DNA of 64,000 bases from a virus (IMGVR_UViG_3300035208_008180); one strand, 5' to 3'. Positions 327-44,046 are shown, counted from the stretch's first letter. Translations and numbers: made by a program. The notes: generated from the letters alone by a model not told the origin.

Positions 327-367
327 AGAAACATCCTTATAACAAATACAATTGAATTTGTAAAGAG

Positions 368-441
368 AGGGGGAAGTGAGAATCGAACTCACTACCTTCG
401 GCTTAACAGGCCGACGCATATACCTAATCAGCTTTTCCCCC
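368..441 (-). tRNA. tRNA-Asn(GTT)
   Basis: Cloverleaf GGGGGAA..TTCCCCC; anticodon arm TCGGC-CTGTTAA-GCCGA; T-loop TTCGATT. Confidence 0.93.
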
Positions 442-970
442 GATTATCATAACACCTTTTAAGCAAGTGTTCTGGAACTTCTGTAACGCCATTGCCAACT
501 TCGGCATGGCAATTAGCACACACCAAAACGCATTTATTTGCTTCCGACAACATAACTTCCCAACTTTTGCACAAACCTTGCTGCGAAAGTGAAAACTTTT
601 TATCACAAACATGATGAAACTCTAATGAGCCCTGATATTTGTTGTAACCACAAAGCTCACACCTTCCCCCAAAGTGAGCGACCAATTTTTCTTTTCTTTT
701 TACACGGCTCTTGGTCACAGCTTCCGATCTGCATTTTTTACATCGATATCCCTTGCAATCTCTCACAAACTCCACCGCACCGTGTTTTTTGCATATTGAT
801 GGAACGAACTTGGCAGTTGCATCTATCGTTTCATATTCCAAGTTCTTTGTGTTGTGTCTGCCAAACGGAGAACAAGATAAACAAAACTTACGACGCTGCA
901 AATTTCTTGCTTTTCCATCGACTATTGCTTCGAGCGGAAACTCCTCACCACACTTTTTACATTTTCTCAT
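428..970 (-). CDS. HNH homing endonuclease with N-terminal Zn-finger
   Basis: CELCGY..LEFHH..KCVLVCANCHAEV; start moved to ATG 970 (longer ORF runs through tRNA-Thr); lies between tRNA genes. Confidence 0.85.
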   Translation of the reverse strand: MRKCKKCGEEFPLEAIVDGKARNLQRRKFCLSCSPFGRHNTKNLEYETIDATAKFVPSICKKHGAVEFVRDCKGYRCKKCRSEAVTKSRVKRKEKLVAHFGGRCELCGYNKYQGSLEFHHVCDKKFSLSQQGLCKSWEVMLSEANKCVLVCANCHAEVGNGVTEVPEHLLKRCYDNRGKS

Positions 971-1038
971 ATATAACCTCCATGCTATATATGAGTAATA
1001 AACCAAATGTTTAACAAAAAATATTAAACATTTAGTAG

Positions 1039-1109
1039 AGCCACCAGTGGGAATCGAACCCACGTATCCACTTTACCGAAGTGGCACTCTACCATTGAGT
1101 TACAGCGGC
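1039..1109 (-). tRNA. tRNA-Thr(GGT), atypical C33
   Basis: GCCGCTG..TGGTGGC acceptor; CCACT-TCGGTAA-AGTGG; GTGGG-TTCGATT-CCCAC. Confidence 0.88.
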
Positions 1110-1165
1110 AGACCCGGCCATTATGTTCGTCACCAAAATATGGGAGCGGAACACCGGGTACTTAG

Positions 1166-1238
1166 CGGTGCCAACGAGTGTCGATCTCGTACTTCCTGCT
1201 CGACGGGCAGGTGTGCAGGGCCGCTACACTATGACACC
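1166..1238 (-). tRNA. tRNA-Asp(GTC), atypical C33 and A54
   Basis: GGTGTCA..TGGCACC-G; CCTGC-CCGTCGA-GCAGG; T-loop ATCGACA. Confidence 0.85.
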
Positions 1239-1579
1239 GAATCATCCAAATTCTGAAATGCATAAAGCAATACAAAAAGTTTCAACTTTTGCACTTCATC
1301 AAATTCTTTGTAAGGGATTGCACATCCTTGCTCTTTCATCAACTCCTTTAGTCCTTCAACATCTTCTTCTGGAATTGTGAAATCGCCAAACACATCCTCA
1401 AGCTTCATTCCAACCATCGACATAATGTTGCTGAACGATGGCGGTTCTTCTCGCAATTTCTTTGCGATAACTTGCAAAAGCTTGTCGTCATCAATGGCAT
1501 CTATTTTTGTTTTGACGGTGTGAGCAAACTTGTTTTGGACTGCTTTTTTTCCGCCAAAATATTTGAATACATCAACCAT
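1229..1579 (-). CDS. hypothetical protein
   Basis: 116-aa ORF on the coding strand. Confidence 0.55.
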   Translation of the reverse strand: MVDVFKYFGGKKAVQNKFAHTVKTKIDAIDDDKLLQVIAKKLREEPPSFSNIMSMVGMKLEDVFGDFTIPEEDVEGLKELMKEQGCAIPYKEFDEVQKLKLFVLLYAFQNLDDSVS

Positions 1580-1723
1580 GATTTATACCTTTGGTAGCGG
1601 TATTACAGATGGGTGCTCGTCGTCTATCTCATCCATAATGTCTGGAAATATAATTCGTAACAACAAATTCGCAAACAATATTGTCACCAAAGCCCATGCC
1701 ATGATTTTCCTTCAACTGCCATT

Positions 1724-2065
1724 CTAAATCAACTTCATGCTTTTTTCAATAGCAAGTTCTCGTGATGATCCAATTAATTCGTAAAGCTGATCTGGCAAGG
1801 GGTCGCCCGATTCGGCTTTATTATGGCAACCCTCACAAAGACTAATGCCATTTTCCGCCACATAGCCACCATTCGGCATCGCATCCCTGTCAGTGATGTG
1901 ATGTGCATCCAACTTGGCTCTTGGAATGTCTAAACCTTCAAATTCGCCAGTTTGACTACATTTCCCAGGTTGGCCACAGACCCTACATGCATATCGATCT
2001 CTTTTGAACACAGCTTTACGAAAAACTGATCTTACCGTTTGTTTTTTATGCATGATTTTCTCCAA
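1724..2065 (-). CDS. HNH endonuclease
   Basis: RDRYACRVC..LDAHHI..NGISLCEGCH. Confidence 0.85.
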   Translation of the reverse strand: MEKIMHKKQTVRSVFRKAVFKRDRYACRVCGQPGKCSQTGEFEGLDIPRAKLDAHHITDRDAMPNGGYVAENGISLCEGCHNKAESGDPLPDQLYELIGSSRELAIEKSMKLI

Positions 2066-2068
2066 AAG

Positions 2069-2142
2069 CGAGCGTGACGGGGGTCGAACCCGCTACCCCT
2101 TGATCGACAGTCAAGGATGCAAAACCGTTACACCTCACGCCC
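2069..2142 (-). tRNA. tRNA-Asp(GTC)
   Basis: GGGCGTG..CACGCTC-G; CTTGA-CTGTCGA-TCAAG; TTCGACC T-loop. Confidence 0.92.
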
Positions 2143-2145
2143 AAA

Positions 2146-2369
2146 ATTTGTCATCTCATAAGCGGAATTCTGTTTACAACCATCATTTATCTCACATTGC
2201 TGTGGTCTTTCGACTGCCTCTACCCGACTTCTCAGGGTCACTCACGCCCTCAGTCTGTTTGAGTTGCATCCTCGGTAGTTCGGACGAACAAAGTTCTCCT
2301 ACCTTAAAAGTGATGATGTTCCGACTTTCCTCTACGGATTGCTCCGCAGCGATGGTTCGGATGACAAAT
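2146..2369 (-). ncRNA. rnpB: RNase P RNA, minimal (catalytic domain only, 224 nt)
   Basis: P1 ATTTGTCATC/GATGACAAAT; P2 AACCATC/GATGGTT; P3 CTGCGGA-GCAA-TCCGTAG; CR-I GAGGAAAGTCGGAA pairing with CR-V ACAGAATTCCGCTTA (P4); P5 CATC/GATG; P6 TCACT/AGTGA; P7 GGTAG/CTACC; L15 GGTA; AGATAAAT before the P2 3' strand. Confidence 0.88.
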
Positions 2370-2394
2370 GTATATTAGAGAAAATACGATTTAG

Positions 2395-2467
2395 AGCCAC
2401 CAGAGGGAATCGAACCCACGACAGGCTGATTACAAATCAGCTACTCTACCAACTGAGTTACGGTGGC
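2395..2467 (-). tRNA. tRNA-Thr(TGT)
   Basis: GCCACCG..TGGTGGC; GCTGA-TTTGTAA-TCAGC. Confidence 0.95.
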
Positions 2468-2471
2468 AAAG

Positions 2472-2542
2472 AGCGTCCAGGGAGAATCGAACTCCCAGCT
2501 TGACCTTGGAAGGGTCAGGTATTACCACTATACGATGGACGC
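2472..2542 (-). tRNA. tRNA-Gly(TCC)
   Basis: GCGTCCA..TGGACGC-T; TGACC-CTTCCAA-GGTCA. Confidence 0.95.
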
Positions 2543-2547
2543 AAAAG

Positions 2548-2618
2548 TGGACCGTAGGAGAGTCGAACTCCTGTCTTCGCCGTGCAAGGGCGACGTAATC
2601 CCGTTATACCAACGGCCC
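2548..2618 (-). tRNA. tRNA-Ala(TGC)
   Basis: G3.U70; TCGCC-CTTGCAC-GGCGA. Confidence 0.95.
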
Positions 2619-2972
2619 ATTTCTTTTCCATCCAGAATAATCTCTGGAAGGCTCGCAAAAATGACCCTCTTCATCATAAGGCCATTCTTTATAATAAATC
2701 CAATCCTTTAAGCACTCCTCCCTGATGAATTTGTAGGCAAAAGGTCGAACACGCACCAATTGATCGTAATGTGCTTTGCTCTCAGACCCTGTTCTAATAT
2801 CCTTGATTAAAACAAGTTGCTTCTCATGCTCATGTCCAATTACTTTCCAATATGGACCGTGCAACAAAAAAGCATCCATATCCTGAAACATAAACATTTC
2901 ACCAGTTATCAAATCCTTTGCCTTGACGTGGTATCCTCCCCACCCTGGCTCGTCGCATCGCTTATCACTCAT
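2604..2972 (-). CDS. hypothetical protein
   Basis: 122-aa ORF with GAGGAG RBS. Confidence 0.6.
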   Translation of the reverse strand: MSDKRCDEPGWGGYHVKAKDLITGEMFMFQDMDAFLLHGPYWKVIGHEHEKQLVLIKDIRTGSESKAHYDQLVRVRPFAYKFIREECLKDWIYYKEWPYDEEGHFCEPSRDYSGWKRNGPLV

Positions 2973-2994
2973 TTTTTCTCCTCAGACGCCCATA

Positions 2995-3282
2995 CTAAAC
3001 AACTTTCTTCCAGCCATTCTCGGCTAAAATATTTTCTATTTTTGCAAACTTTCCTTCTTCGTCACATTCAACGTCGAAAGACACTTCAGATAATTTACCA
3101 TCACACGGAGAATAAATAAGCAAATCAGCATTACGAAGACACCAATCCTCCCCAGCCACATCAGGATGCATGCCAGGAAAAACAATGCCATCGCCAGTGT
3201 GCGGAATTATTTCTAATTCCAACTCTTTACTGTAAACTGCATTCTGTGATCCCCAAATAACAACATTGCAATCAATTCTCAT
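2995..3282 (-). CDS. hypothetical protein
   Basis: Start MRIDCN at 3282 after GAGGAG RBS, downstream of tRNA-Val. Confidence 0.6.
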   Translation of the reverse strand: MRIDCNVVIWGSQNAVYSKELELEIIPHTGDGIVFPGMHPDVAGEDWCLRNADLLIYSPCDGKLSEVSFDVECDEEGKFAKIENILAENGWKKVV

Positions 3283-3296
3283 AATTTTCTCCTCAG

Positions 3297-3370
3297 TGGT
3301 CGCAGCAGGGATCGAACCTGCGAGCCTCTCGCACGTCAAGCGAGCGTTCTCCCAACTGAACTATGCGACC
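3297..3370 (-). tRNA. tRNA-Val(GAC)
   Basis: GGTCGCA..TGCGACC-A; CTCGC-TTGACGT-GCGAG. Confidence 0.94.
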
Positions 3371-3374
3371 AAAG

Positions 3375-3448
3375 TCAAGGCGGCGAGAATCGAACTCGCA
3401 ATTTCAAGTCCCCCAGACTTGCGGGATAAACCATTTCCCTACGCCCTG
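3375..3448 (-). tRNA. tRNA-Pro(GGG)
   Basis: CAGGGCG..CGCCTTG-A; CAAGT-CTGGGGG-ACTTG. Confidence 0.93.
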
Positions 3449-4021
3449 TTATTTTCTAACTGCCCAATGGTAATGTATTTTACGATGGCAGTTAGCACAC
3501 AGCACTTTACACTTTGCTATTTCTTTTTTTAAATTGGGCAATCCCCAATCACAAACAGCCCTTGTAATATTGATTTCTTTTTCCCCATCGTGATGAAAAT
3601 CCAAACAACACTCTTCTTTTTCTCCGCACTCTTCACAACAATGCGTTCTTCTATATTCGCTAACAAACGCTCTGTTTCTCTGCCTTTTTACATTACTTGT
3701 TGTGGGTGGACAATCATTGCGATGAATTTTTCTATGACAATTTGCACAAACCACTTCACATTTAGCAATCTCTTTTTTCAATCTTTCTAAACCAAAGCCC
3801 TGAATAGCCGTTGCCACAGAAGTGTCTTTATCTCCAAGATGATGAAGTTGCAAACAAGCAACACACGACTCTCCGCAAGTACAAGCATGTGCTTCTTTGT
3901 ATTGCTCCACATACAGTTTGTTTGCTTGTTTTCTGTTTTTATTTCGATCTCTAAAAATTGCTTTATTTTTCTGAAAATGTTTTCTTTGAAACTCTTTTTG
4001 ATCTTCTTTATTTTTATACAT
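3449..4021 (-). CDS. tandem double-HNH endonuclease
   Basis: Two repeats of C..CGE...CL.FHH...EIAKC.V.CANCHRKIH; stop abuts tRNA-Pro. Confidence 0.87.
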   Translation of the reverse strand: MYKNKEDQKEFQRKHFQKNKAIFRDRNKNRKQANKLYVEQYKEAHACTCGESCVACLQLHHLGDKDTSVATAIQGFGLERLKKEIAKCEVVCANCHRKIHRNDCPPTTSNVKRQRNRAFVSEYRRTHCCEECGEKEECCLDFHHDGEKEINITRAVCDWGLPNLKKEIAKCKVLCANCHRKIHYHWAVRK

Positions 4022-4094
4022 TTGAACCTCACTATATTATATAGTAAGATTCAACTCATTTTAGGTGACTAAATTTATATTTTGTAGAAAAAAG

Positions 4095-4168
4095 TCGGGG
4101 TGGTCGGCTTCGCTCCGACGTTCTTGTGCTCCCGAAGCACATGGGATACTGGACTTCCCCACACCCCG
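4095..4168 (-). tRNA. tRNA-Pro(CGG), non-canonical elbow
   Basis: CGGGGTG..CACCCCG-A; TGTGC-TTCGGGA-GCACA; T-loop AGCGAAG; D-loop has AG for GG. Confidence 0.87.
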
Positions 4169-4171
4169 AAG

Positions 4172-4245
4172 TCAGGGTAGTCGGCTTCGCTCCGACGATC
4201 TCTTGCTCCCAAAGCAAGCGTGATACTAGGCTTCACTATACCCTG
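4172..4245 (-). tRNA. tRNA-Pro(TGG), non-canonical elbow
   Basis: CAGGGTA..TACCCTG-A; CTTGC-TTTGGGA-GCAAG; T-loop AGCGAAG. Confidence 0.87.
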
Positions 4246-4252
4246 CAAACAG

Positions 4253-4323
4253 TCGGTCAGACAAGAATCGAACTTGTTACCCGAGTTCCCAAAACTCGTA
4301 TGTCGCCATTACACCACAGACCG
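4253..4323 (-). tRNA. tRNA-Pro(TGG)
   Basis: CGGTCTG..CTGACCG-A; CGAGT-TTTGGGA-ACTCG. Confidence 0.9.
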
Positions 4324-4326
4324 AAA

Positions 4327-4536
4327 CTAAATCAACGCTTCCATAAAATAATCTTTTTCTTCTGCCACTTTCACAGCGGCAATTTTTATCACATAGCAAT
4401 GCCAAGTCCAAGTGGCCCCACCCCGATCCAGATCAACAGCATAACCAGTTTTCGTGACTTTGATTATTACACCATTACCTGCTCGTATAGGGCACAACAC
4501 TTTAACTCGATCACCGACTGCCAGCAATTTCTTCAT
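4327..4536 (-). CDS. KOW/SH3-like small protein (paralog family)
   Basis: VGDRVKV..G.GVII..; C-terminal DYFMEALI. Confidence 0.7.
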   Translation of the reverse strand: MKKLLAVGDRVKVLCPIRAGNGVIIKVTKTGYAVDLDRGGATWTWHCYVIKIAAVKVAEEKDYFMEALI

Positions 4537-4541
4537 ATCAA

Positions 4542-4811
4542 TTAACTTTGCCAAAGAGGCATCCAGCCAACAATTTCATCATTTTTTATTTTAACAAATC
4601 CATTCATATGATTCAAGGTTTCCCCATTATCCCAGAATCTGACTTCCATTCCTTCGGAATTTTTCATAAAATCAGCAGCATCTTTATCAATTGCATCATT
4701 TAAACCCTGGTCAATATCGATGCCATCTTTTTCCAAGTCGGCTTTGATAAATGCTGCCACATCTTCTATTTTTTGCTTTAGATGTTCTTTTCTCAACCAA
4801 TTATATTTCAT
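4542..4811 (-). CDS. hypothetical protein
   Basis: 89-aa ORF coupled by ATGA overlap. Confidence 0.55.
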   Translation of the reverse strand: MKYNWLRKEHLKQKIEDVAAFIKADLEKDGIDIDQGLNDAIDKDAADFMKNSEGMEVRFWDNGETLNHMNGFVKIKNDEIVGWMPLWQS

Positions 4812-5038
4812 ACAAACGCTTCCATAAAATAATCAATTTCTTTTTCGACCGAAACCAATTCCAACTCATTTTCCCTAAAGCCTAACGACCAGAATTTGTT
4901 ATGCGAATCTTCTATTCTCACGAAAACAAGTGGCAAAGCAACCCCTATAACAACGCCTTGCTGTCCCAGCCACACAAGATTGTTTGGAAATCTCGATGGA
5001 TATTTAACAACAACCCTGTCATCGATTTCAAATTTCAT
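4808..5038 (-). CDS. KOW/SH3-like small protein (paralog family)
   Basis: MKFEIDDRVVV..GQQGVVIG..ENELEL..DYFMEAFV. Confidence 0.7.
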   Translation of the reverse strand: MKFEIDDRVVVKYPSRFPNNLVWLGQQGVVIGVALPLVFVRIEDSHNKFWSLGFRENELELVSVEKEIDYFMEAFV

Positions 5039-5274
5039 ATAAGTGCTTCCATAAAATAATCAATTTCTTCGGCAACCGATGCTAATTCATTTTCTGCAAA
5101 CTGTAAAGAACATGTTCCACTAAAACTTGTTAAATCTGGCAAGACTGTTACGAATTTTAATGAAACCAAATAATAAACTGTCGTTTTTGTGGGCAACCCT
5201 ACAACAACGCCTATAGTGGTTGTCCAAATACTATTTCCAATGACTTTAACTTTATCACCGATTTTGAATTTCAT
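5035..5274 (-). CDS. KOW/SH3-like small protein (paralog family)
   Basis: MKFKIGDKVKV..GVVVG..ENEL..DYFMEALI. Confidence 0.7.
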   Translation of the reverse strand: MKFKIGDKVKVIGNSIWTTTIGVVVGLPTKTTVYYLVSLKFVTVLPDLTSFSGTCSLQFAENELASVAEEIDYFMEALI

Positions 5275-5480
5275 ATCAGTGCTTCCATAAAATAATCTTT
5301 TTTATCTTCAGCTAAAACCAACTCACTTTCTGCAAGTGTTAGTAATGTTTTGGAGCCATCTATTTGCACCAAAAACACAAGCACAGGATTGGTTATAAAG
5401 TCGAGCACGACACCTGTCTCATTTTTCCACTCTGACGACGACGTAACGACTTTAACTCGATCACCTATTTTGAATTTCAT
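5271..5480 (-). CDS. KOW/SH3-like small protein (paralog family)
   Basis: MKFKIGDRVKV..GVVLD..ESEL..DYFMEALI; ATG 6 nt after TGCTATAAT (leaderless). Confidence 0.7.
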   Translation of the reverse strand: MKFKIGDRVKVVTSSSEWKNETGVVLDFITNPVLVFLVQIDGSKTLLTLAESELVLAEDKKDYFMEALI

Positions 5481-5592: not shown

Positions 5593-5597
5593 AAAAG

Positions 5598-5671
5598 TAC
5601 CCCGTATGGGATTCGAACCCATGATTTTCACCTTGAGAGGGTGACGACATAAACCGTTAGTCCAACGGGGC
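5598..5671 (-). tRNA. tRNA-Glu(CTC)
   Basis: GCCCCGT..ACGGGGT; TCACC-CTCTCAA-GGTGA. Confidence 0.93.
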
Positions 5672-5676
5672 ATGAG

Positions 5677-5749
5677 TAGCCGCAGGGTGAATCGAACACC
5701 CGTTTCCACCGTGTAAGGATGGCACTAAATACCACTCAGTTATGCGGCC
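5677..5749 (-). tRNA. tRNA-Val(TAC)
   Basis: GGCCGCA..TGCGGCT-A; CCATC-CTTACAC-GGTGG. Confidence 0.92.
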
Positions 5750-5762
5750 ATAAATAATATAG

Positions 5763-5834
5763 TAGCCCGTGACGGTTTCGATCCGTCTTCCGCTGCCTGA
5801 AAAACAGCTATCCTAGCCAGTAGACGAACGGGCC
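5763..5834 (-). tRNA. tRNA-Glu(TTC)
   Basis: GGCCCGT..ACGGGCT; GCTGT-TTTTCAG-GCAGC; T-loop ATCGAAA. Confidence 0.88.
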
Positions 5835-5844
5835 ATAACTAAAG

Positions 5845-5917
5845 TACCCTGTACGGGATTCGAACCCGTAATTTTCAGCTTGAAGGGCTGACGACATAAC
5901 CGTTAGTCCAACAGGGC
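5845..5917 (-). tRNA. tRNA-Glu(TTC), atypical C33
   Basis: GCCCTGT..ACAGGGT; TCAGC-CCTTCAA-GCTGA. Confidence 0.9.
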
Positions 5918-6682: not shown

Positions 6683-6837
6683 TTGACCCTTAAAATAGCG
6701 AAACTTGGATGGGTTGGTTGTCTTAGGCGGTTGGGTAAAACCCAAACCCTCGACCAATGCTCCAAATCTCACTACCTCCTTTATATAGTACGTTCGAGAA
6801 AAAATCAAGCCCAAATTCCGAAAAATTTTTTTCTAAG

Positions 6838-6965
6838 TCCGACGACCCGGAATCGAACCGGCTATTACCCGAATGTTGCAACACCCAAAGTAACTTGAGC
6901 ATCAAGCCATTTCGCACCCAAAATCTACCCATATGTCTCGAATTTGGATACGTGCCTGTCATCGG
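6838..6965 (-). ncRNA. tRNA-like RNA with enlarged arms (128 nt)
   Basis: Acceptor CCGATGAC/GTCGTCGG-A, T-arm CCGG-TTCGATT-CCGG, three internal hairpins; own promoter at 6971-7000. Confidence 0.65.
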
Positions 6966-6970
6966 TCATC

Positions 6971-7000
6971 ATTATACTTCAGATTTCGCCGTTGTAAACC
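6971..7000 (-). promoter_or_regulatory. conserved sigma70-type phage promoter GTTTACA-N16-TATAAT
   Basis: GGTTTACAACGGCGAAATCTGAAGTATAAT; motif recurs at least 12 times in the window. Confidence 0.8.
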
Positions 7001-7007
7001 AAAAAAA

Positions 7008-7251
7008 ATGGCAGGTTGGGCTTGAGTACCAACTACGAACTTTGAACACCAATTTTTCGTTATTTCCCCAACGTATCAAGTGCCGTGTCTTCGTTGGGTC
7101 GGTGCCAGGGTCTAATCGCTTTGTCCTTTCCCTTGCGGGGAAGGCACGAAGTAGTCACCTACACTCACCGGGCACTACCGGATAGCTCGTGTCACCCAGT
7201 AGGCTTTCGCCTACCCTCATTGCGAAGCGTGTCCATCCACGCCGCTGCCAT
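7008..7251 (-). ncRNA. putative structured ncRNA (about 244 nt) with tRNA-like ends
   Basis: Closing stem ATGGCAG/CTGCCAT; D-like arm GCGTG-GATGGA-CACGC; T-like arm GTTGG..CCAAC; GNRA hairpins GTAGGC-GAAA-GCCTAC, GTAG-GTGA-CTAC, CCC-GCAA-GGG; promoter at 7277. Confidence 0.65.
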
Positions 7252-7276
7252 ACACCGAGGTGTATCTGACAATGCC

Positions 7277-7305
7277 ATTATACTTCAGTGCCTGGATTTG
7301 TAAAG
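7277..7305 (-). promoter_or_regulatory. conserved phage promoter
   Basis: CTTTACAAATCCAGGCACTGAAGTATAAT. Confidence 0.75.
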
Positions 7306-7514
7306 TCCGAATCCAGCCATTTGCAACATTCGTCAAAACCCTCAATGTGGAGGGATTGCTCTTCCTCTGTCAGTTCAACCTCTGGCGGTATTTTGACGGG
7401 CATTGGTCCAAAAAACGTATCTCGGAAAATGCCGGAAGAATTGATTTCATAGACAGCCCAAGCACCACCATAACCATCAGAGGTTATCTTGAGAATCCAT
7501 TCTTTTAATTTCAT
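7278..7514 (-). CDS. hypothetical protein
   Basis: 78-aa ORF. Confidence 0.5.
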   Translation of the reverse strand: MKLKEWILKITSDGYGGAWAVYEINSSGIFRDTFFGPMPVKIPPEVELTEEEQSLHIEGFDECCKWLDSDFTNPGTEV

Positions 7515-7535
7515 GATTTAATGTCCTAAAAGAAG

Positions 7536-7709
7536 CGTGGGGGGTAGGCATCGAACCTACGTCTTTGGTTCCGCAAACCACTGTCTTTACGCATCAATAT
7601 CCTTGCATCTTCTTTCCGACCAGCTTTCGTCGGATGTCCAAAACAACAATATCAATGCGTCCTGCCGTAGTATGTACACTTAGGCGGCAGCCAACTAAAC
7701 GACTCCCAC
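7536..7709 (-). tRNA. tRNA-Arg(GCG)-like gene with about 100-nt structured D-loop insertion
   Basis: GTGGGAG..CCCCCAC-G; D-stem GTTT/AGAC split by insert 7590-7690; TGGT-TTGCGGA-ACCA; GTAGG-TTCGATG-CCTAC. Confidence 0.7.
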
Positions 7710-18361: not shown

Positions 18362-18572
18362 TGTAAAAAAAGTCTATCTGCCCCTTGTTCTTGCAACCAT
18401 CGAGTCACCACCAAATGAAACACTCGGTGTATTTGCTCTGAAGTTAGTGGCTCCCCAGGTTTTTCATAATTAAAAAAACCTGCTTCCTTTAATTTGGCGA
18501 ACTCCAATTTTTCCAACAAAGATTTGGCGTCTTTGTCTTCAATGAGAATTACTTTCATCATTTCCTCCTAAG

Positions 18573-18649
18573 TCAGCGGGGCAGGATTCGAACACTGCGA
18601 CCTTCAGCTTGTTTATGGCTGATGCTCTGGCCAACTGAGCTACCCGCCG
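18573..18649 (-). tRNA. tRNA-like gene with 9-nt anticodon loop (undetermined or pseudo)
   Basis: CGGCGGG..CCCGCTG-A; canonical D-arm; TCAGC-CATAAACAA-GCTGA; bulged T-stem. Confidence 0.7.
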
Positions 18650-30415: not shown

Positions 30416-31822
30416 CTAATCCTCCGAGGGGCTGTTATCGCCACACATTTTCACAATCTTCGGATTAAAGGTTGCAACAATTTCAACCAAATCCGATTGA
30501 GCCGCCATAACTGTATCAATATCTTTATAGACCCCAGGGCTTTCGTCTGCCGTGGCGTCCAAGACAATGACACCTTGCCGATCCAAGTTACCTTGGACAG
30601 CTTTCCAAACATATTTTTCTTTGGCTTTTTTACGAGACATCAATCGCCCCGCCCCGTGAGAAGCAGAACAAAGACTCGCCGGATTACCTTTGCCCACCAC
30701 AATATAAGCAGGCGTGCCCATCGAACCAGGAATTACACCCAGCATACGATGGCTTGCAGGGGTTGCTCCCTTACGATGCACCACTACCTCGCCTTGATTC
30801 GGATCATGCGTTTCAAGGAAAGCGAAATTGTGATGATTCTCTACATTAAATAAAACTTTGGCTCCCAAATTCTGAGCCATAGCCTTGTGAATCAATTGAT
30901 GATTGGCTTGAGCGAATCGACCCATCAATTGCATTGCGAGCCAATATTCCTGCCCATCATTGGATGCCAAATCCAACCATGCCAGATTTTTCAAATCGTC
31001 ATATTTCTTCGGCAACTTGGATTGAGCAACCCCGTGATACATTTGGCATACTGCTGCCCCCGGTCCCCGAGAACCTGAATGAGTCATAATTGCCACATAC
31101 TCACCAGGGAGCAGCCCAGCAATATCTGCAAGCGATGGCGAATTTTGTATTTGCAGAATGCCGACATCAATAAAATGATTTCCGCTACCCGAAGTTCCTA
31201 GCTGCTTCCAGGCTTTGTCTTTTTGCTGTTTGGTGACTCTGGTAATTCCCCAATCCTCATCCATAACCGGATGATTTTTGGGCTGATCGAAGACCGCATT
31301 TCCGCCGTCGCCAATACCAAAACGAGTGCTCTTGGCAATCGCTTCCCTGTACAAATTAAATTTCTTTTCCAAGGAATTGACTGGCATATCTAGGATTGAC
31401 AAGCTCATACGGCAAGCAATATCGACGCCGACCGCATTCGGACATACGGCTCCTTGCAAAGCCAAAACCCCACCAATGGGCAGTCCGTAACCAACATGAC
31501 AATCTGGCATAACGGCGGCAGTAACCGCCATCGGCAATGAACAAGCTTGCTGCATTTGTCCGTCACAACCCTCTTCCAACGACCCCCATACCTTGTAGGG
31601 GATAGCAGCAGATCGAACAAACTGTTGCTCTTGAATTAGAAGATTGGCTAAATCTCCGAAGTGTTTATCTCCGACATATTCCTGAGGGTTGGTGAAGAAA
31701 GTCTTCATGATAGCCTTGATATTGCGATCATCGCCGCCCTCTCGGGCTACACGAATAGCATCGACCGCAAGACGGGCACAATCCTCAGGACATCCAAGTT
31801 TAACAAGCTGTTTGCCGTTCAT
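30416..31822 (-). CDS. rtcB: RNA 3'-phosphate/5'-OH ligase RtcB
   Basis: MPDCHVGYGLPIGG, VGVDIAC, GTSGSGNHF, HSGSRG, HHNFA, HRKGAT, PGSMG, SHGAGR, DESPGVYK. Confidence 0.96.
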   Translation of the reverse strand: MNGKQLVKLGCPEDCARLAVDAIRVAREGGDDRNIKAIMKTFFTNPQEYVGDKHFGDLANLLIQEQQFVRSAAIPYKVWGSLEEGCDGQMQQACSLPMAVTAAVMPDCHVGYGLPIGGVLALQGAVCPNAVGVDIACRMSLSILDMPVNSLEKKFNLYREAIAKSTRFGIGDGGNAVFDQPKNHPVMDEDWGITRVTKQQKDKAWKQLGTSGSGNHFIDVGILQIQNSPSLADIAGLLPGEYVAIMTHSGSRGPGAAVCQMYHGVAQSKLPKKYDDLKNLAWLDLASNDGQEYWLAMQLMGRFAQANHQLIHKAMAQNLGAKVLFNVENHHNFAFLETHDPNQGEVVVHRKGATPASHRMLGVIPGSMGTPAYIVVGKGNPASLCSASHGAGRLMSRKKAKEKYVWKAVQGNLDRQGVIVLDATADESPGVYKDIDTVMAAQSDLVEIVATFNPKIVKMCGDNSPSED

Positions 31823-38359: not shown

Positions 38360-38611
38360 ATTTCTCCCTGGGCTGCTCCTATTATACTTCAGAAACAGAG
38401 GTTGTAAACTCTTTTCGTTTAAACCAATAAAAACCCCTGTGTTTTACCCAGCCGCCTACGGAAATGTAGAAGAAATACTTCCACAACATCGCAAGCCACC
38501 CAACCCCATAAATATAGGCAACCCACTCAGAATGGTTGCTGAACATCAACAACAATGGCAGAATGATGAGAATAGTTAAAACAATCACAATCTGTAGCGT
38601 TGTTTTCATAG

Positions 38612-38683
38612 GGTGGCCGACGAGAATCGAACTCGTATACCCGGATTCACAGTCCAGTTCCTAAGCCATTCGGACACGGCCAC
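38612..38683 (-). tRNA. tRNA-His(GTG), no encoded G-1
   Basis: GTGGCCG..CGGCCAC-C; CTGGA-CTGTGAA-TCCGG. Confidence 0.92.
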
Positions 38684-38685
38684 AG

Positions 38686-38758
38686 TGAGACCAGACGGAC
38701 TTGAACCGTCACCTACTTCCTTAAGAGGGAAGAATGCTGCCGCTAACACCTTGGTCCC
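38686..38758 (-). tRNA. tRNA-Lys(CTT)
   Basis: GGGACCA..TGGTCTC-A; CTTCC-CTCTTAA-GGAAG. Confidence 0.9.
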
Positions 38759-38763
38759 AAAAA

Positions 38764-39045
38764 TCATTCAAAATCCACAATCTGACAACGACGATCAGAG
38801 TGATATTTTCCCAACACAACTTCCAACATTTCTTTATCAGAAAGAATTCCCTTGTCCGACAAAGTAGAAACTAAATTGCCGAGCACTTCGGCAAGTCTTT
38901 TGATCCTATCTTCGATTCCATTGTGCCTGTCGTAGAAGTCATCCTTTCCTTCCATGACAAAATGCTCAACAAATTGTTCAACAGAAAATTCCTCAACAAA
39001 TTCACCAGTGCTTGGGTGCGGAGTACCAAATCTTACTGTTTTCAC
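38764..39045 (-). CDS. hypothetical protein
   Basis: 93 aa with GGAGGT RBS. Confidence 0.55.
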   Translation of the reverse strand: MKTVRFGTPHPSTGEFVEEFSVEQFVEHFVMEGKDDFYDRHNGIEDRIKRLAEVLGNLVSTLSDKGILSDKEMLEVVLGKYHSDRRCQIVDFE

Positions 39046-39260
39046 GATTCACCTCCTCCAAATAACGCTTCCAAATCTTCAGCGTCAATCACTCGCTGTC
39101 CATCGCTCAGTTGATAGACTTTCAGCTTCACGCCACCTAAATCCAAAACGCCTCTGTGTGTGGCGAATGGAACTTCACCATCCAATTCTGGCGGTTCGGC
39201 AGGAAGAGACTCCCACTCCACCCCATCCAACAAAATTTGTATTGGAGATTTGGATTCCAT
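39042..39260 (-). CDS. hypothetical protein (resembles N-terminus of P63C/antirepressor-type proteins)
   Basis: GVLDLGG..LKVYQLSDGQRVI; promoter 39270-39299. Confidence 0.45.
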   Translation of the reverse strand: MESKSPIQILLDGVEWESLPAEPPELDGEVPFATHRGVLDLGGVKLKVYQLSDGQRVIDAEDLEALFGGGES

Positions 39261-39880
39261 ATTGCCCTCATTATACTTCAGAAATTGACGTTGTAAACCA
39301 ATTCATTACCACGGCTTTCATTTGATCGCCAAACTCTTCAATAGCTGCCTCAACCTCCCTGAAATCATCCCCTTCCTGCCACAAAACATCAGAACACTCC
39401 ATCATCCCCTTCGGACTAAAATCAAACAAACGCTCAACAACTTCAAGTTTCTGCTCTCTTGTTAGTTGCATCTCATCCTCCACAACCACAAGGACTAAAA
39501 TCCATATTTCGTTCTTTGGATAATTTATCAATACTTCCGTCTTCTGCACATGTTTTACAAATTACCACATGTTCTTGACCATCGTGATATAATCGACAAC
39601 CAACAAATATTCCGCACGACTCACAAGGAAATCCATCTCTGGCTTCGTTGGCTAAATTCCAATTACTCATTTTACATGTCCCCAATTTGCTATAGCAAGT
39701 GATTCTGTCCAGCGTCCAAACAGTGGATGCTCCCAAAACCACTCGTTATTCACCAATGGCGGATTTAATATCCTTTTCCATCCATTGGCCCTCAACTTTG
39801 CACGCCTTTGCCAACTATCTGTCAGCATTTCAGCAACTTCTGTCAGTGCTTTTTCACCAATAGTCATGATTATTCTCCAG

Positions 39881-39953
39881 GGTGACTAACGGGAGTCGAA
39901 CCCGCTAAAACCTGATCCACAGTCAGGCCCCTAACCGTTCGGGATTAGCCACC
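39881..39953 (-). tRNA. tRNA-His(GTG) with G-1
   Basis: G-GTGGCTA..TAGTCAC-C; CCTGA-CTGTGGA-TCAGG. Confidence 0.9.
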
Positions 39954-40174
39954 ATATTTCGTAATCCTAATCGACACCCACTCTGACTCTCCTCTTGGAA
40001 GAATACCAACCTGAAGCACGTTGTCCATTTTCCAATCAACAACGGAATCATCGCAATATAACGAAAATTCCGATATAATGTCCTCAACATACAATCCTAA
40101 ATCTTCCCAAAAAGCTGCTGATTGGAAAGCAATTCTCTGAATTGACAAAAGCAATCGTCTTATTTGTACTCTGG

Positions 40175-40333
40175 TTATATTTTTTCCACATAACAATGCC
40201 AAGTCCATGTCACACCTCCATGATCTAAATCGATGTTATAGCCAGTTTTAGTGATTTTGATTATAACACCATCACCCGCCCGTTTGGGACACAACACCTT
40301 AACCCTATCGCCAATTTCAAGTAATTTTTTCAT
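40175..40333 (-). CDS. KOW/SH3-like small protein, paralog of 4327-4536
   Basis: MKKLLEIGDRVKVLCPKRAGDGVIIKITKTGY..WTWHCYV. Confidence 0.7.
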   Translation of the reverse strand: MKKLLEIGDRVKVLCPKRAGDGVIIKITKTGYNIDLDHGGVTWTWHCYVEKI

Positions 40334-40336
40334 AAG

Positions 40337-40407
40337 CAGGAGTGCTAGGATTCGGACCAAGATCGACGGTTTTGGAGACCGTTATGCTACCATTGCACCA
40401 CACTCCT
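40337..40407 (-). tRNA. tRNA-Trp(CCA)
   Basis: AGGAGTG..CACTCCT-G; ACGGT-CTCCAAA-ACCGT. Confidence 0.92.
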
Positions 40408-40413
40408 TCGCAG

Positions 40414-40488
40414 CAGCACCGCCAGGACTCGAACCCGGATCGCCTCGATTTGGAATCGAGTGCCCTAAGCCATTTGGACCACGGTGCT
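40414..40488 (-). tRNA. tRNA-Trp(CCA)
   Basis: AGCACCG..CGGTGCT-G; CTCGA-TTCCAAA-TCGAG. Confidence 0.92.
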
Positions 40489-40565
40489 GTATTTGAATGC
40501 TGTGGGTCGTGTGGGCGTGGCATTGCTAGGCAACGGCGTTTCCTCGGAACACCACAGCATTCAAG

Positions 40566-40644
40566 AGTCGGCAGGCGGAATCGAACCACTTAACATCTGA
40601 TTTGCAATCAGACCCCCAGCCTTCGGAGATTAGTTTCTGCCGAC
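40566..40644 (-). tRNA. tRNA-Cys(GCA), atypical acceptor-D linker
   Basis: GTCGGCAG..CTGCCGAC-T; TCTGA-TTGCAAA-TCAGA; about 8 extra nt before D-arm. Confidence 0.8.
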
Positions 40645-40651
40645 AATTCAG

Positions 40652-40728
40652 TGGAGCTAGAGGGAGTCGCACCCTCAGTTACCAACGTACCCATTGTAGG
40701 TTTTACGTTAGACTCGCTTTGTAGCCCC
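40652..40728 (-). ncRNA. mini tmRNA-like RNA (tRNA-like domain only, 77 nt)
   Basis: GGGGCTA..TAGCTCC-A with G3.U70; no D-stem; helix CTAACGTA/TACGTTGG closed by a 14-nt loop; T-arm GAGGG-TGCGACT-CCCTC. Confidence 0.72.
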
Positions 40729-40956
40729 TTATCTTTTTGGACCTTGCCAATCATCCCTGTATTTATATGTAAATTCAGCATCAATTGGCGTGTTCAATCC
40801 TTCCTCTCGCAACATTTCCTCAAGAGCATCAGCCACTTCATCATAAACATCACAACGCTCTTGTTCTACGGCCCAAGTCCATGTGCTGCCGGTAGGCGTA
40901 TGACTTGCTTTTTCCCTTAATTGAGCAATATATGCTCTAATCTTTTCCGACTTCAT
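40729..40956 (-). CDS. hypothetical protein
   Basis: 75-aa ORF inside array B. Confidence 0.5.
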   Translation of the reverse strand: MKSEKIRAYIAQLREKASHTPTGSTWTWAVEQERCDVYDEVADALEEMLREEGLNTPIDAEFTYKYRDDWQGPKR

Positions 40957-41155
40957 CTTTCTTTCCCTTTTTCTTCTTTTCTTTTGGTGCTGATTTCAAA
41001 CTTTCAATCAAAACTTTTACCTCAGCATTTTCCGCAAGTTTAGTTATCAACTCATTCAATCCATGAATCTCCAAACCTTGCCTTGTCGTTTGTTTCACAA
41101 GGTCTTGTATTACACCCTGTGGATCAGTTTGACAGCGTTCTTCAAAGGTTATCAT
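40937..41155 (-). CDS. hypothetical protein
   Basis: 72-aa ORF with GAGGT RBS. Confidence 0.5.
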   Translation of the reverse strand: MITFEERCQTDPQGVIQDLVKQTTRQGLEIHGLNELITKLAENAEVKVLIESLKSAPKEKKKKGKKDEVGKD

Positions 41156-41524
41156 TTTACCCTCTCACAACATCATGGATTTTTGACGGAGCTTGAACAA
41201 CATCTATGATTTCAAAACCAGGAGGCATATATTTTTGTGCCTCATCCCAAGCTTCGCTCACACAAGCGGCGGCTACACTGATCTTTGGTGTCTTAACCTT
41301 TTCCTTGATGTTTTTCTTGAACTTTACAAGATATTGCATGTTTCATCCTTTGCATCAAAATTTACACAATCACATTCCCAGCAGCAGCCTTCTTCGTCAT
41401 GTGCTTCTGAAAGATGCCCACAGGAACATATCATTTTCTTATATCGACTGCAAGAGGGGTCGTGACCACCTCTCAAATCCCTTTCGCATTCGCTACATTC
41501 GATGCTCATATCATTCTCCTTTAG

Positions 41525-41595
41525 CTGCCCCGTAAGGAATCGAACCTTATCTTTCTCGTTCAGAGCGAGACGTGCGGCCACTACACCACGGGGCA
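41525..41595 (-). tRNA. tRNA-Gln(CTG)
   Basis: TGCCCCG..CGGGGCA-G; TCTCG-CTCTGAA-CGAGA. Confidence 0.94.
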
Positions 41596-41601
41596 AAATA
41601 G

Positions 41602-41673
41602 CTGGGCTGGAAGGATTCGAACCTTCACGAACAGATTCAAAGTCTGTCAGGCTAACCGTTACCTCACAGCCCA
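41602..41673 (-). tRNA. tRNA-Gln(TTG)
   Basis: TGGGCTG..CAGCCCA-G; ACAGA-CTTTGAA-TCTGT. Confidence 0.94.
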
Positions 41674-41781
41674 AAAATTTGGTAAATATTTCGGTGTTCC
41701 ACAGCTTAAACTGCCGAGGTTAGAGGCTGTCCATCCTCACCGAGGTTATCGGCCACCGTATCGCCAACTTGGGACATTTAG

Positions 41782-41866
41782 CAGGGGCAGAAGGAATTGA
41801 ACCTCCGAGTGCTTTCGCATGCAGCTTCAAAGACTGCCGGGGTCTGCCAACAACCCCAATACCCCC
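41782..41866 (-). tRNA. atypical tRNA with TTG (Gln) anticodon, 6-bp D-stem and variable arm
   Basis: GGGGGTA..TGCCCCT-G; GGGGTT/GACCCC; GCAGT-CTTTGAA-GCTGC; TGC-GAAA-GCA; GGAGG-TTCAATT-CCTTC. Confidence 0.78.
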
Positions 41867-41871
41867 ATGTT

Positions 41872-41994
41872 TGCAACCAACTGGAATCGAACCAATATTT
41901 CTCCGGTGTCGGGAACGTTTTGCCTTAGGCCGCTTTTTGCCAACCCTTGTTCTAGAATTGAATTAGTTATTACGACCCCTTAAACTATAGTTGC
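41872..41994 (-). ncRNA. tRNA-like RNA with hairpin insertion in D-loop
   Basis: GCAACTA..TGGTTGC acceptor; D-stem GTTT/AAAC split by about 50-nt hairpin; ATTGG-TTCGATT-CCAGT; degenerate anticodon arm. Confidence 0.6.
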
Positions 41995-41997
41995 AAG

Positions 41998-42070
41998 TGA
42001 GACCGTTGGGATTCGCACCCAAAACCTACGGCTTAAAAGGCCGTTGCTCTACTAATTGAGCTACGATCCC
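41998..42070 (-). tRNA. tRNA-Lys(TTT), A18/G55 elbow
   Basis: GGGATCG..CGGTCTC-A; ACGGC-CTTTTAA-GCCGT; T-loop TGCGAAT. Confidence 0.9.
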
Positions 42071-42160
42071 ATATAAGGAAAAGATTGCCAATCTTTATTA
42101 CAGCAGCACAACCTTTGCAGGAAACCCTGGGAAAAGGATTTTATGGCCACAAACCTTGAG

Positions 42161-42232
42161 TGGGTCCACTCGGAATCGAACCGAGGTCAAAACATTAAGA
42201 GTGTTCTATTCTAGCCGCTGAACTATGGACCC
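42161..42232 (-). tRNA. tRNA-Lys(CTT)
   Basis: GGGTCCA..TGGACCC-A; GAACA-CTCTTAA-TGTTT. Confidence 0.93.
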
Positions 42233-42245
42233 AAAGGATAAACCA

Positions 42246-42259
42246 AATTGTCAAAGATC
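42246..42259 (-). promoter_or_regulatory. boxA-like antitermination motif GATCTTTGACAATT
   Basis: Identical to 6088-6101. Confidence 0.6.
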
Positions 42260-42264
42260 ACAAG

Positions 42265-42335
42265 TGGGTCCACGGGGAATCGAACCCCGATAAACTGGGT
42301 AAAAGCCAGTTATTCTGCCATTGAATTACGAACCC
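42265..42335 (-). tRNA. tRNA-Lys(TTT)
   Basis: GGGTTCG..TGGACCC-A; ACTGG-CTTTTAC-CCAGT. Confidence 0.92.
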
Positions 42336-42985
42336 TACAACCACTCTTCATTCACAAAACCACAATATTCTTGAATTGCTCCATAAATGTGTTGCACCAT
42401 ATGAGTGTCGCACACCCTTAAAGAACAAACTCCAAACTTATGCTTATTCTTTTTATACCCGCCACCTTCTCCCTCTTTGAAAACTCCCTTTCGCAAACTG
42501 CTATGGTCTAATTTCAAAATTCCAAGCCAATAATCTTCAATCTCTTTTTTTGATAGACCATTGTTTAAATAACAATTGATGCATATTGTATACTTTTGTT
42601 TTGGGAAGTAGGTATCCACAAATTTTTTAAATGCACAAATGACATTCGCATCCGTATTCGCCAAGCTTGCCACATTTCTACTTTTTGTTCCTTCTGCCCA
42701 ATACAGCGTACAACCCAACAAATGCTGCAACTCTCCCTTTTTCGCCTGCTCCCTCCCCTCTTGCTGATATTGTTTCCTAATTGCCAAATATTTTTTTCTT
42801 GTTCCTTCTTTGCCAGCAAACCCTATTCTTCCATCTAAATTCTTGCGTTTCGTTTGCGACATTTTTATGGGGCGTGTCCATACACTTGCTGTTGATTTAG
42901 ACACACCCAACAAATTCACTATTTCACCAAGCGACTTACCTTCTTTCCTCAATTGTTTGGCTTTTTCTTTTAACTCTTTTTTCAT
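42335..42985 (-). CDS. HTH plus LAGLIDADG-like putative homing endonuclease
   Basis: N-terminal HTH (KSLGEIVNLLGVSKSTASVW); GCTLYWAEGTK..LANTD; stop abuts tRNA-Lys. Confidence 0.65.
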   Translation of the reverse strand: MKKELKEKAKQLRKEGKSLGEIVNLLGVSKSTASVWTRPIKMSQTKRKNLDGRIGFAGKEGTRKKYLAIRKQYQQEGREQAKKGELQHLLGCTLYWAEGTKSRNVASLANTDANVICAFKKFVDTYFPKQKYTICINCYLNNGLSKKEIEDYWLGILKLDHSSLRKGVFKEGEGGGYKKNKHKFGVCSLRVCDTHMVQHIYGAIQEYCGFVNEEWL

Positions 42986-43040
42986 AATAGAACCTTGCCT
43001 TTCTACCTATATATAATAGCAAAGTTCTATTTTTTTCAAG

Positions 43041-43114
43041 TCGTGGCTTTGAGAGTCGAACTCAACACGGAATCCTTATCAGGGATTCCAGGGCAAACCG
43101 GCCCGTCAGCCACG
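43041..43114 (-). tRNA. tRNA-Ile(GAT), atypical 7-bp anticodon stem
   Basis: CGTGGCT..AGCCACG-A; GGAATCC-CTGATAA-GGATTCC; TTGAG-TTCGACT-CTCAA. Confidence 0.8.
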
Positions 43115-43119
43115 TATTT

Positions 43120-43689
43120 TCAATTCAAACTCGGATCGCACTTTGGAAACATATCAAAGAACGAACTTTTCCTTTCTTTCAATGGTTTTGATTCATACTT
43201 ATACTTTTCATCAAGAGACCCCAGTCCCCTGGGATAACCCTCCAAAACTGTCAAACAACCTACAGCATCGCCCCAGGTCCAGTTGTTGGCAAGAGACTCT
43301 TTTGCAAACTCTGCCATGTAAGCTCTTGCTCTTGGAACCAAGCCATCATCCATCTTGTCGTTATACAAATCTTTTGCATAACTTAGAAGCCTGATAGCTT
43401 CCATAAGCACCAACAAATAACTTTTTTTTCCAAAATCCAATGGCACACCCAGAAGCATGTTACCTTCTGTTGCCACAACGCAAACAAAGGAAAAATCACC
43501 CAAAGCCACAGGAGTCACACCTGAAAGCATCAATTTTGAACTAAATTGTGACAATTCCTTCAAAGCATCGAGTGGTATAGTATTAAATTTATCAAACAAA
43601 TGTTGAAGCAACTTCATTACCCTCCGTCCTTGCAAAGCAACAGGATCATCGGGTGGCAAATTATCAATCCTTGGAATTGTGTCCATCAT
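43120..43689 (-). CDS. hypothetical protein, first ORF after attenuator B
   Basis: Start MMDTIP after AGGAG; the longer ORF overlaps the attenuator. Confidence 0.55.
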   Translation of the reverse strand: MMDTIPRIDNLPPDDPVALQGRRVMKLLQHLFDKFNTIPLDALKELSQFSSKLMLSGVTPVALGDFSFVCVVATEGNMLLGVPLDFGKKSYLLVLMEAIRLLSYAKDLYNDKMDDGLVPRARAYMAEFAKESLANNWTWGDAVGCLTVLEGYPRGLGSLDEKYKYESKPLKERKSSFFDMFPKCDPSLN

Positions 43690-43707
43690 AATGCTCCTAA
43701 AGCCAAT

Positions 43708-43748
43708 AAAAAAAGCCCTGTCCAGTTTTTTACCTGAACGGGGCTTTT
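43708..43748 (-). terminator. attenuator B intrinsic terminator
   Basis: AAAAGCCCCGTTCAG-GTAAAAAA-CTGGACAGGGC followed by T7. Confidence 0.82.
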
Positions 43749-43793
43749 CAATACCAACCCGGCTCAGGCATTTGTCCTGAGCCACGGTGCAAC

Positions 43794-43862
43794 TCAGAAC
43801 AGATCGCCAGTAATGCAGCAATGCTGCCACTTTTGTTTCTGTTGTTTTTGTTGCTTCGACAT
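43794..43862 (-). CDS. leader peptide B (MSKQQKQQKQKWQHCCITGDLF)
   Basis: 22-aa ORF with AAGGA RBS, below the ORF-track cutoff; stop lies inside the first attenuator helix. Confidence 0.78.
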   Translation of the reverse strand: MSKQQKQQKQKWQHCCITGDLF

Positions 43863-43879
43863 TATTCTTTTTCCTTCAG

Positions 43880-43953
43880 TGGCGGGAGTAGGATTTGAAC
43901 CTACGGCCTCAAGGTTATGAGCCTTGCGAGCTACCAGACTGCTCCACCCCGCA
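43880..43953 (-). tRNA. initiator-type tRNA-fMet(CAT)
   Basis: TGCGGGGTGGAGCAGTCTGGTAGCTCG; 1:72 mismatch; CAAGG-CTCATAA-CCTTG. Confidence 0.92.
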
Positions 43954-43973
43954 TCATGTTTTCAAAAATTAAG

Positions 43974-44046
43974 TGGCAGGGGCGGGGGATGATCCCGCTT
44001 TCATTTGGTTATGAGCCAAATAAGATAACCGTACCTACCCCCTGCG
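43974..44046 (-). tRNA. atypical tRNA-Met(CAT)
   Basis: CGCAGGG..CCCTGCC-A (C1:C72); TTTGG-CTCATAA-CCAAA; T-loop ATCATCC. Confidence 0.75.

Follow-up and report, generated by a model that had tools for sequence, protein, structure and literature searches.

The 64,000-nucleotide stretch analysed here (the window, IMGVR_UViG_3300035208_008180) corresponds to positions 32001-96000 of C200, one of 252 contigs in its assembly, and contains an array of transfer RNA (tRNA) genes together with a gene for a mini ribonuclease P (RNase P) RNA. All 32 tRNA genes found with ARAGORN in the window are on the minus strand, and 29 of these pass the Rfam gathering score. Genes were called with ARAGORN and Rfam, the 7-bp acceptor stem was located for each gene, and the next base was taken as N73. 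In this register N73 is followed by C74 and T75 in 32/32 genes, while a CCA end is encoded in none of them (0/32). The same holds across the whole of C200 (340,072 bp, 40.5% GC, where the majority of contigs in the assembly are at approximately 69% GC): the 63 ordinary tRNA genes represent all 20 amino acids, and have C74 and T75 in 63/63 and a templated CCA in 0/63. The end of C200 is joined to the start of contig C242 (97 kb, 39% GC, terminase-bearing) by an exact overlap of 127 nt, and the two are therefore one phage of at least 437 kb.

The pattern had been described in an earlier note made from the window sequence, which reported N73-C-T for the array tRNAs and for four tRNA-like genes and no encoded CCA, and our counts agree with this. 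C-T is also present at the tRNA-like 3' ends at 6838, 7536 and 40652 (all N-C-T) and at the Phe(AAA) gene at 18572-18649, which is the fourth tRNA-like gene of that note (given there as 18573). As was also stated there, the sole exception in the window is the degenerate element at 41872-41994, which has the trailer A-A-A. Two genes required a change of register: tRNA-Met at 43974-44046, when fitted to the Rfam model, has a C1xC72 mismatch, A73 and then CT, and tRNA-His at 39880-39952 has G-1 encoded in its leader ('gg'), followed at the 3' end by C73, C74 and T75. The only CCA-bearing tRNA-like calls on C200 are at 333-334 kb, beyond the window; in that region (C200:333496-334202) the acceptor strand AAACAAT is common to two tRNA-like calls, with CCA after the first.

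tRNA genes, tRNA-like elements and the mini RNase P RNA in the window:
366-441, minus strand: tRNA-Asn(GTT), with C74 at 367 and T75 at 366 (ARAGORN, Rfam)
1037-1238, minus strand: tRNA-Thr(GGT) and tRNA-Asp(GTC), each N73-C-T (ARAGORN)
2067-2142, minus strand: tRNA-Asp(GTC), N73-C-T; its 5' end and the mini RNase P RNA 3' end are directly adjacent (ARAGORN)
2143-2368, minus strand: mini RNase P RNA, bacterial type A, 226 nt, without specificity domain (67.1 bits, model positions 1-367)
2393-2618, minus strand: tRNA-Thr(TGT), Gly(TCC) and Ala(TGC), separated by CTTT and CTTTT (ARAGORN)
3295-3448, minus strand: tRNA-Val(GAC) and Pro(GGG), N73-C-T (ARAGORN)
4093-4323, minus strand: three tRNA-Pro (CGG, TGG, TGG), N73-C-T (ARAGORN)
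5596-5917, minus strand: tRNA-Glu(CTC), Val(TAC) and two Glu(TTC), N73-C-T (ARAGORN)
6836-6870, minus strand: tRNA-like 3' end, T-arm GCCGGTTCGATTCCGGG, then TCGTCGG-A-C-T (without Rfam match)
7534-7570, minus strand: tRNA-like 3' end, T-arm GTAGGTTCGATGCCTAC, then CCCCCAC-G-C-T (without Rfam match)
18571-18649, minus strand: tRNA-Phe(AAA)-like gene, N73(A)-C-T (ARAGORN; Rfam 45.5 bits)
38610-38758, minus strand: tRNA-His(GTG) and tRNA-Lys(CTT), with a Lys-His spacer of C-T only (ARAGORN)
39879-39953, minus strand: tRNA-His(GTG), encoded G-1, C73-C74-T75 (Rfam; register by hand)
40335-40644, minus strand: two tRNA-Trp and a tRNA-Cys, N73-C-T (ARAGORN only)
40650-40728, minus strand: tRNA-like RNA, acceptor GGGGCTA/TAGCTCC (G3.U70), T-arm, then A-C-T
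41523-41866, minus strand: tRNA-Gln(CTG), Gln(TTG) and a long Gln(TTG), N73(G)-C-T (ARAGORN)
41872-41994, minus strand: degenerate tRNA-like element, trailer A-A-A (Rfam tRNA, 33.5 bits)
41996-42335, minus strand: tRNA-Lys(TTT), Lys(CTT) and Lys(TTT), N73(A)-C-T (ARAGORN)
43039-43114, minus strand: tRNA-Ile(GAT), A-C-T (ARAGORN)
43878-44046, minus strand: two tRNA-Met(CAT), the second (43974-44046) with C1xC72 mismatch, A73, then C-T (ARAGORN, Rfam)

Strictness of the C-T trailer

The expected frequency of a C followed by a T on the tRNA strand is approximately 0.18 x 0.29 = 0.05 per gene, and therefore chance cannot give 32/32 or 63/63 C-T trailers. A T is found at position 76 in 56% of the C200 tRNAs, and positions 77 onward are unconstrained. 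It could be argued that C-T is a by-product of the duplication of tRNA genes together with their spacers, or of mutational bias, without any selection on the trailer, and some neighbouring genes do share longer spacers, such as CTTATGG. However, the 63 tRNAs span 20 amino acids and are unrelated in sequence, there is no constraint past position 76 with only about 5% C-T expected per gene, and C-T is retained in a relative whose tRNAs differ in sequence (see below). Both chance and gene-plus-spacer duplication were rejected on these grounds, and we consider an origin without selection to be extremely improbable.

Conservation of the trailer in other phages and tRNA arrays

Nucleotide searches of the phage collection did not find a close relative of the C200 phage. 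Public contigs were searched for the layout of a mini RNase P RNA, with conserved regions CR-I and CR-V 130-160 nt apart, which gave 15 viral contigs and 43 contigs from reference genomes. The contig IMGVR_UViG_3300005825_000057 (40.6% GC) is truly related to the phage, its proteins showing 44-67% amino acid identity, and has C-T in 16/16 real tRNAs, the tRNA sequences themselves being different, while an unrelated phage from the same assembly as C200 (the contig chain C184-C179-C63-C102-C226) has C-T in 3/3 tRNAs. This persistence across divergence, both in the relative and in unrelated arrays, argues for purifying selection on the C-T mark, as the earlier note had proposed from its invariance.

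A second big group of mini RNase P arrays, at 63-71% GC and originating from Gemmataceae, Planctomycetia and other metagenome-assembled genomes (MAGs), also has C-T, mostly as C-T-G. The 8-kb Gemmatales mini RNase P loci have no proteins in common with the phage. In the related Gemmatales contigs L100, L103 and L113 the mini RNase P RNA directly adjoins the tRNA array. Other arrays and phages have other fixed trailers: CCA in L018, L020, L024, G005 and an Achromobacter array, CCT in G002, TT in G001, and CA(A) or CA(T) in L027 and in four phages reached via their CCA-adding enzyme.

C-T trailers in cellular genomes and candidate hosts

C-T is not confined to phages and arrays. In the Gemmataceae genome G010 it follows 15/22 dispersed housekeeping tRNA genes and 54/67 array genes, and in six further Gemmatales/Planctomycetia MAGs it is present in 27/43 high-scoring tRNA genes, with three genomes reaching 18/21; the C-T genes of these six MAGs include Thr-Tyr-Gly-Thr clusters and adjacent Ile-Ala pairs. 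Genomes were also searched with the pattern T-arm+N11+CT, which replaced a looser pattern (GTTCRANYC-N12-CT) that was too noisy, with 10-50 control matches per genome. The stricter pattern gave 14-42 matches in a subset of 41 sampled Planctomycetota and 17-32 matches in several families of the phylum of the co-binned bacterium (the 69% GC bacterium in the assembly), with 0-2 matches for the controls in both. Taken together, the dispersed cellular genes and the pattern counts show that scattered bacterial lineages use C-T as a cellular convention. The idea that C-T is special to the phage was thus not upheld, since it is the majority housekeeping trailer in Gemmatales and frequent in families of another phylum. 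As C-T is found in some bacterial lineages and in other phages, the phage probably did not invent it but follows a shared convention of tRNA trimming. G010, the genome behind the locus L109, has 136 tRNA matches with several long arrays within contigs of 190-490 kb, and its mini RNase P RNA (L109) belongs to the phage-like family.

With regard to the host, the RpoC protein of the high-GC part of the assembly has 75% identity to its counterpart in an 'uncultured delta proteobacterium' MAG, compared with only 45-67% to those of Gemmatales. The earlier note had named a CT trailer on host tRNA genes, as a host convention, among the points that would speak against its reading; the use of CT in Gemmatales and some other families comes close to this, but the co-binned bacterium, with C74 in 45/46 tRNA genes, shares the C74 rule and not the U75 rule. 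A comparison of the phage with the high-GC contigs gave no spacer-like exact match, and similarities were only of 84-85% over 48-87 nt, touching one tRNA-Met gene. Identity of the tRNAs fails to separate candidate hosts, as it is approximately 65% for every set.

The mini RNase P RNA and its L15 loop

In Escherichia coli, C74 and C75 of the precursor tRNA pair with G293 and G292 in the L15 loop of RNase P RNA, a contact that matters in vivo (PMC1874595), and a catalytic domain without the specificity domain (S-domain) is still catalytic, albeit approximately 100-fold slower (PMC5839562). The L15 loop of the phage mini RNase P RNA reads CGGGUAG, with the GGU motif retained, and GGU is found in L15 of all mini RNase P RNAs compared and of both cellular RNase P RNAs examined (CCGGGUAGG). 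Because GGU is kept in the phage and in other RNase P RNAs, a C74-G293 pair and a U75.G292 wobble would be possible. The C75 of the RCCA interaction is not present, as position 75 is U in 63/63 tRNAs, and the second pair is limited to a G.U wobble. The pairing with the L15 GG suggested in the earlier note may therefore be formed as a G-C pair plus G.U, but there is no covariation with the trailer that would speak for it. A change in L15 matching U75 (for instance A292) was sought and none was found, GGU being constant in mini and full-size RNase P RNAs.

The 18 records linked to a mini RNase P RNA contain 246 tRNAs, of which 87% have C and 97% have a pyrimidine at position 74, and in 14/18 records at least 73% of tRNAs have pyrimidine-pyrimidine at positions 74-75. 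Such pyrimidine-rich positions beside mini RNase P genes would fit pairing with GG. They also bear on a different explanation, in which C-U is a tag of phages and mobile elements by which the S-domain-less mini RNase P recognises its own precursor tRNAs, with the trailer replacing the T-loop contact as the main anchor. This is favoured by the phage being stricter (63/63) than the sampled cellular genomes (15/22 and 27/43), by the majority of mini RNase P-bearing arrays being dominated by CT or pyrimidine-pyrimidine, and by the complete CA-type phage G009 having no RNase P RNA match. Nevertheless, CT is likewise the trailer of dispersed Gemmatales housekeeping tRNAs, for which the RNase P RNA is full-size, the L15 of the mini RNase P RNA has the ordinary GGU without covariation with the trailer, and mini RNase P arrays with CCA, CA and TT trailers exist, which together make a dedicated tag distinctly unlikely in our view.

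Two further observations concern the RNase P RNA genes. RNase P cleavage of the abutting tRNA-Asp (2068-2142) would at the same time generate the 3' end of the mini ribozyme itself (2143-2368). In Gemmatales, the array tRNAs mostly have C-T-G and the mini RNase P L15 reads CUGGUAG, the dispersed tRNAs have C-T-N, and the single full-size Gemmataceae RNase P RNA examined (G011) has CGGGUAG; a third contact, between position 76 and L15 position 291, may be possible. A full-size RNase P RNA was found in 1/7 Gemmatales genomes searched, a count that is uninformative on absence as 57-72 candidates were scored per genome, fewer than the first look had found in 6/7 genomes.

Proposed trimming and completion of the 3' end

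The earlier note had alternatively suggested a 3' cut followed by repair by a nucleotidyltransferase, and proposed a search for a phage CCA-adding enzyme or RNase Z. The second half of this suggestion gained a candidate enzyme: outside the window, C200:175100-176317 encodes a predicted class II CCA-adding enzyme (PolyA_pol head domain, 123 bits), whose best solved relatives are CCA-adding enzymes, and C242 carries a second PolyA_pol-like open reading frame (ORF). Protein matches to the CCA-adding enzyme are at only 27-40% identity, the top ones being in uncultured phages of 595-642 kb. For the cut itself, no RNase Z was found on the phage contigs; RNase Z homologs are present in the co-binned bacterium and in 2/5 Gemmatales MAGs. 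An RNase E-type cut, after C74 and before W, was considered because position 75 is W in CA as well as in CT trailers, and was dropped, as U is not consistently present at position 76.

In chloroplasts, C74 is templated by many tRNA genes; a tRNase Z fraction from spinach cleaves 3' of this base, and a nucleotidyltransferase adds the remainder (PMC3161902). This precedent is the basis for another explanation, in which C74 is kept in the mature tRNA for reasons unrelated to RNase P: a nuclease would cut or stall between C74 and U75, either as a tRNase Z cutting after C74 or as an exonuclease halting at a 3' C, after which C75 and A76 are added. In line with this, C74 is near-universal where position 75 varies (45/46 in the co-binned bacterium, and in the CA-, CT- and CC-type phages), and the phage encodes a CCA-adding enzyme. 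Retention of C74 leaves unexplained why U75 is fixed here and A elsewhere, however, and no candidate nuclease was identified. We see it as a possible but rather unlikely explanation in its own right, although it is compatible with the trailer convention favoured below and differs from that only in the role of RNase P.

A probable partial CCA trailer convention

We lean, with little more than even confidence, towards C-T being a 'partial CCA' trailer convention, which the phage obeys without exception. The letter at position 75 would most likely follow the convention of the processing enzymes in the host lineage, and not a code specific to the phage. In the precursor, C74 would pair with G293 of L15 (E. 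coli numbering) and U75 would wobble with G292, which may aid 5' cleavage both by the host RNase P and by the mini ribozyme that lacks the T-loop-binding domain. A trailer other than CCA would escape being taken for a finished end. A host nuclease would then trim the trailer, either after C74 (as in spinach chloroplast tRNase Z) or after N73, and the end would be completed by the phage or host CCA-adding enzyme. Both mechanisms suggested in the earlier note would be compatible with the genes that the phage carries.

Several observations weigh against this convention and its mechanism. L15 does not covary with position 75, GGU being identical in CT, CCA, CCT, CA and TT arrays, and the CA-type phages (the mini RNase P-bearing L027, and G006-G009) are unable to pair position 75 with G292. 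C74 is reported to be the strongest anti-determinant for ordinary RNase Z, and the PxKxRN motif of this enzyme has been linked to CCA anti-determination (PMC3161902); the Gemmatales RNase Z homologs retain PxRxRN at this site. The co-binned bacterium has T75 in only 7/46 tRNAs, C being the commonest base at that position (24), with A in 8 and G in 6, and no CRISPR, protein or tRNA link from the phage to any host was found.

A more far-reaching version would be that a C74-U75 trailer, or a pyrimidine-pyrimidine trailer in general, is what chiefly anchors substrates to a widespread family of S-domain-less RNase P ribozymes of huge phages and tRNA-array elements, and that array, ribozyme and CCA-adding enzyme together form a portable module for tRNA maturation, sufficient in itself and with the trailer as the mark of its substrates. 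We offer this as a speculative proposal that is unlikely to be correct as it stands.

Whereas a templated CCA is usually scored in a yes-or-no fashion, all 63 tRNA genes of this phage agree in having exactly the first letter of CCA and then a U, a rule that is also followed in other huge phages, in mini RNase P tRNA-array elements, and by the ordinary tRNA genes of some bacteria, both within and outside the Planctomycetota. This suggests that there are lineage-specific conventions for the 3' trailer, which phages must match unless they carry their own enzymes, and such conventions could become a feature for host prediction. The 226-nt ribozyme would also be a simple system for gauging how much RNase P relies on L15 when the specificity domain is missing. 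If the trailer is merely inherited from the host, then this is ordinary for a phage, yet it documents a pattern not found in the literature searched.

Other features of the window and the assembly

The two tRNA-His genes are unlike each other, as the gene at 39880-39953 has an encoded G-1, while the gene at 38611-38683 has U at -1. Because the whole Lys-His spacer is C-T, this U is the U75 of the upstream tRNA-Lys, and a templated G-1 would be absent. For the tRNA-like 3' end at 6836-6870, the sole complement of TCGTCGG (6839-6845) is CCGACGA at 7627-7633, approximately 790 nt upstream; the pair spans a region without an ORF of more than 79 aa and with the second T-arm-like end, at 7536, inside it. 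The region 6838-7633 could thus represent a single long RNA with a tRNA-like end. No 5' acceptor partner was found for the tRNA-like end at 7534-7570. The tRNA-like RNA at 40652-40728 combines a T-arm with the G3.U70 pair, the alanine identity pair also found in tmRNA, and lacks normal D and anticodon arms.

The window also contains auxiliary genes of phage type, encoding RtcB, an NAD-dependent DNA ligase and NAD-synthesis enzymes. The RtcB RNA ligase, which functions in tRNA repair, is encoded at 30416-31822 on the minus strand (PF01139, 299 bits), and is mentioned for context only, as it does not concern the trailer itself. Besides the 69% GC bacterium, the assembly contains approximately 1.1 Mb of low-GC contigs, among them C137, C44, C184-C179-C63-C102-C226, C140 and C145; two contigs self-close through 127-nt overlaps (145 kb and 76 kb). 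The chain C184-C179-C63-C102-C226, of approximately 155 kb, is a second phage, with a tRNA-Lys that is 91% identical to one tRNA-Lys of the C200 phage.

Comparison with known systems

Phage T4 has CCA-less tRNAs that depend on the host RNase BN and on the CCA-adding enzyme, and the tRNAs of the C200 phage would likewise require trimming and CCA addition. Phage T4 differs in mixing CCA-encoding and CCA-less genes, and is not known to have a uniform dinucleotide. The C200 phage, by contrast, itself encodes a CCA-adding enzyme as well as a mini RNase P RNA.

The chloroplast tRNA genes with a partial CCA are similar in having C74, no templated CCA and an end completed by a CCA-adding enzyme, but C74 is present in only about 22-32% of these and position 75 is not fixed, versus 100% C74 and 100% U75 in the phage (PMC3161902). 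The RCCA-L15 interaction of E. coli RNase P is mirrored by GGU in the phage mini RNase P RNA and by the invariant C74, although position 75 of the phage tRNAs is U, which allows only a G.U wobble and shows no covariation (PMC1874595). In Bacillus subtilis, the CCA-less tRNA genes depend on RNase Z, which is blocked by a 3'-CCA, and then on a CCA-adding enzyme, and hence also need a nucleotidyltransferase; the trailer of B. subtilis tRNA-Ala1 is U74-A75, in contrast to the universal C74 of the phage (PMC1874595). What is notable in the C200 phage is the strictness of the C-T trailer, at 63/63, and that this trailer repeatedly occurs together with a mini RNase P RNA and a phage-encoded CCA-adding enzyme.

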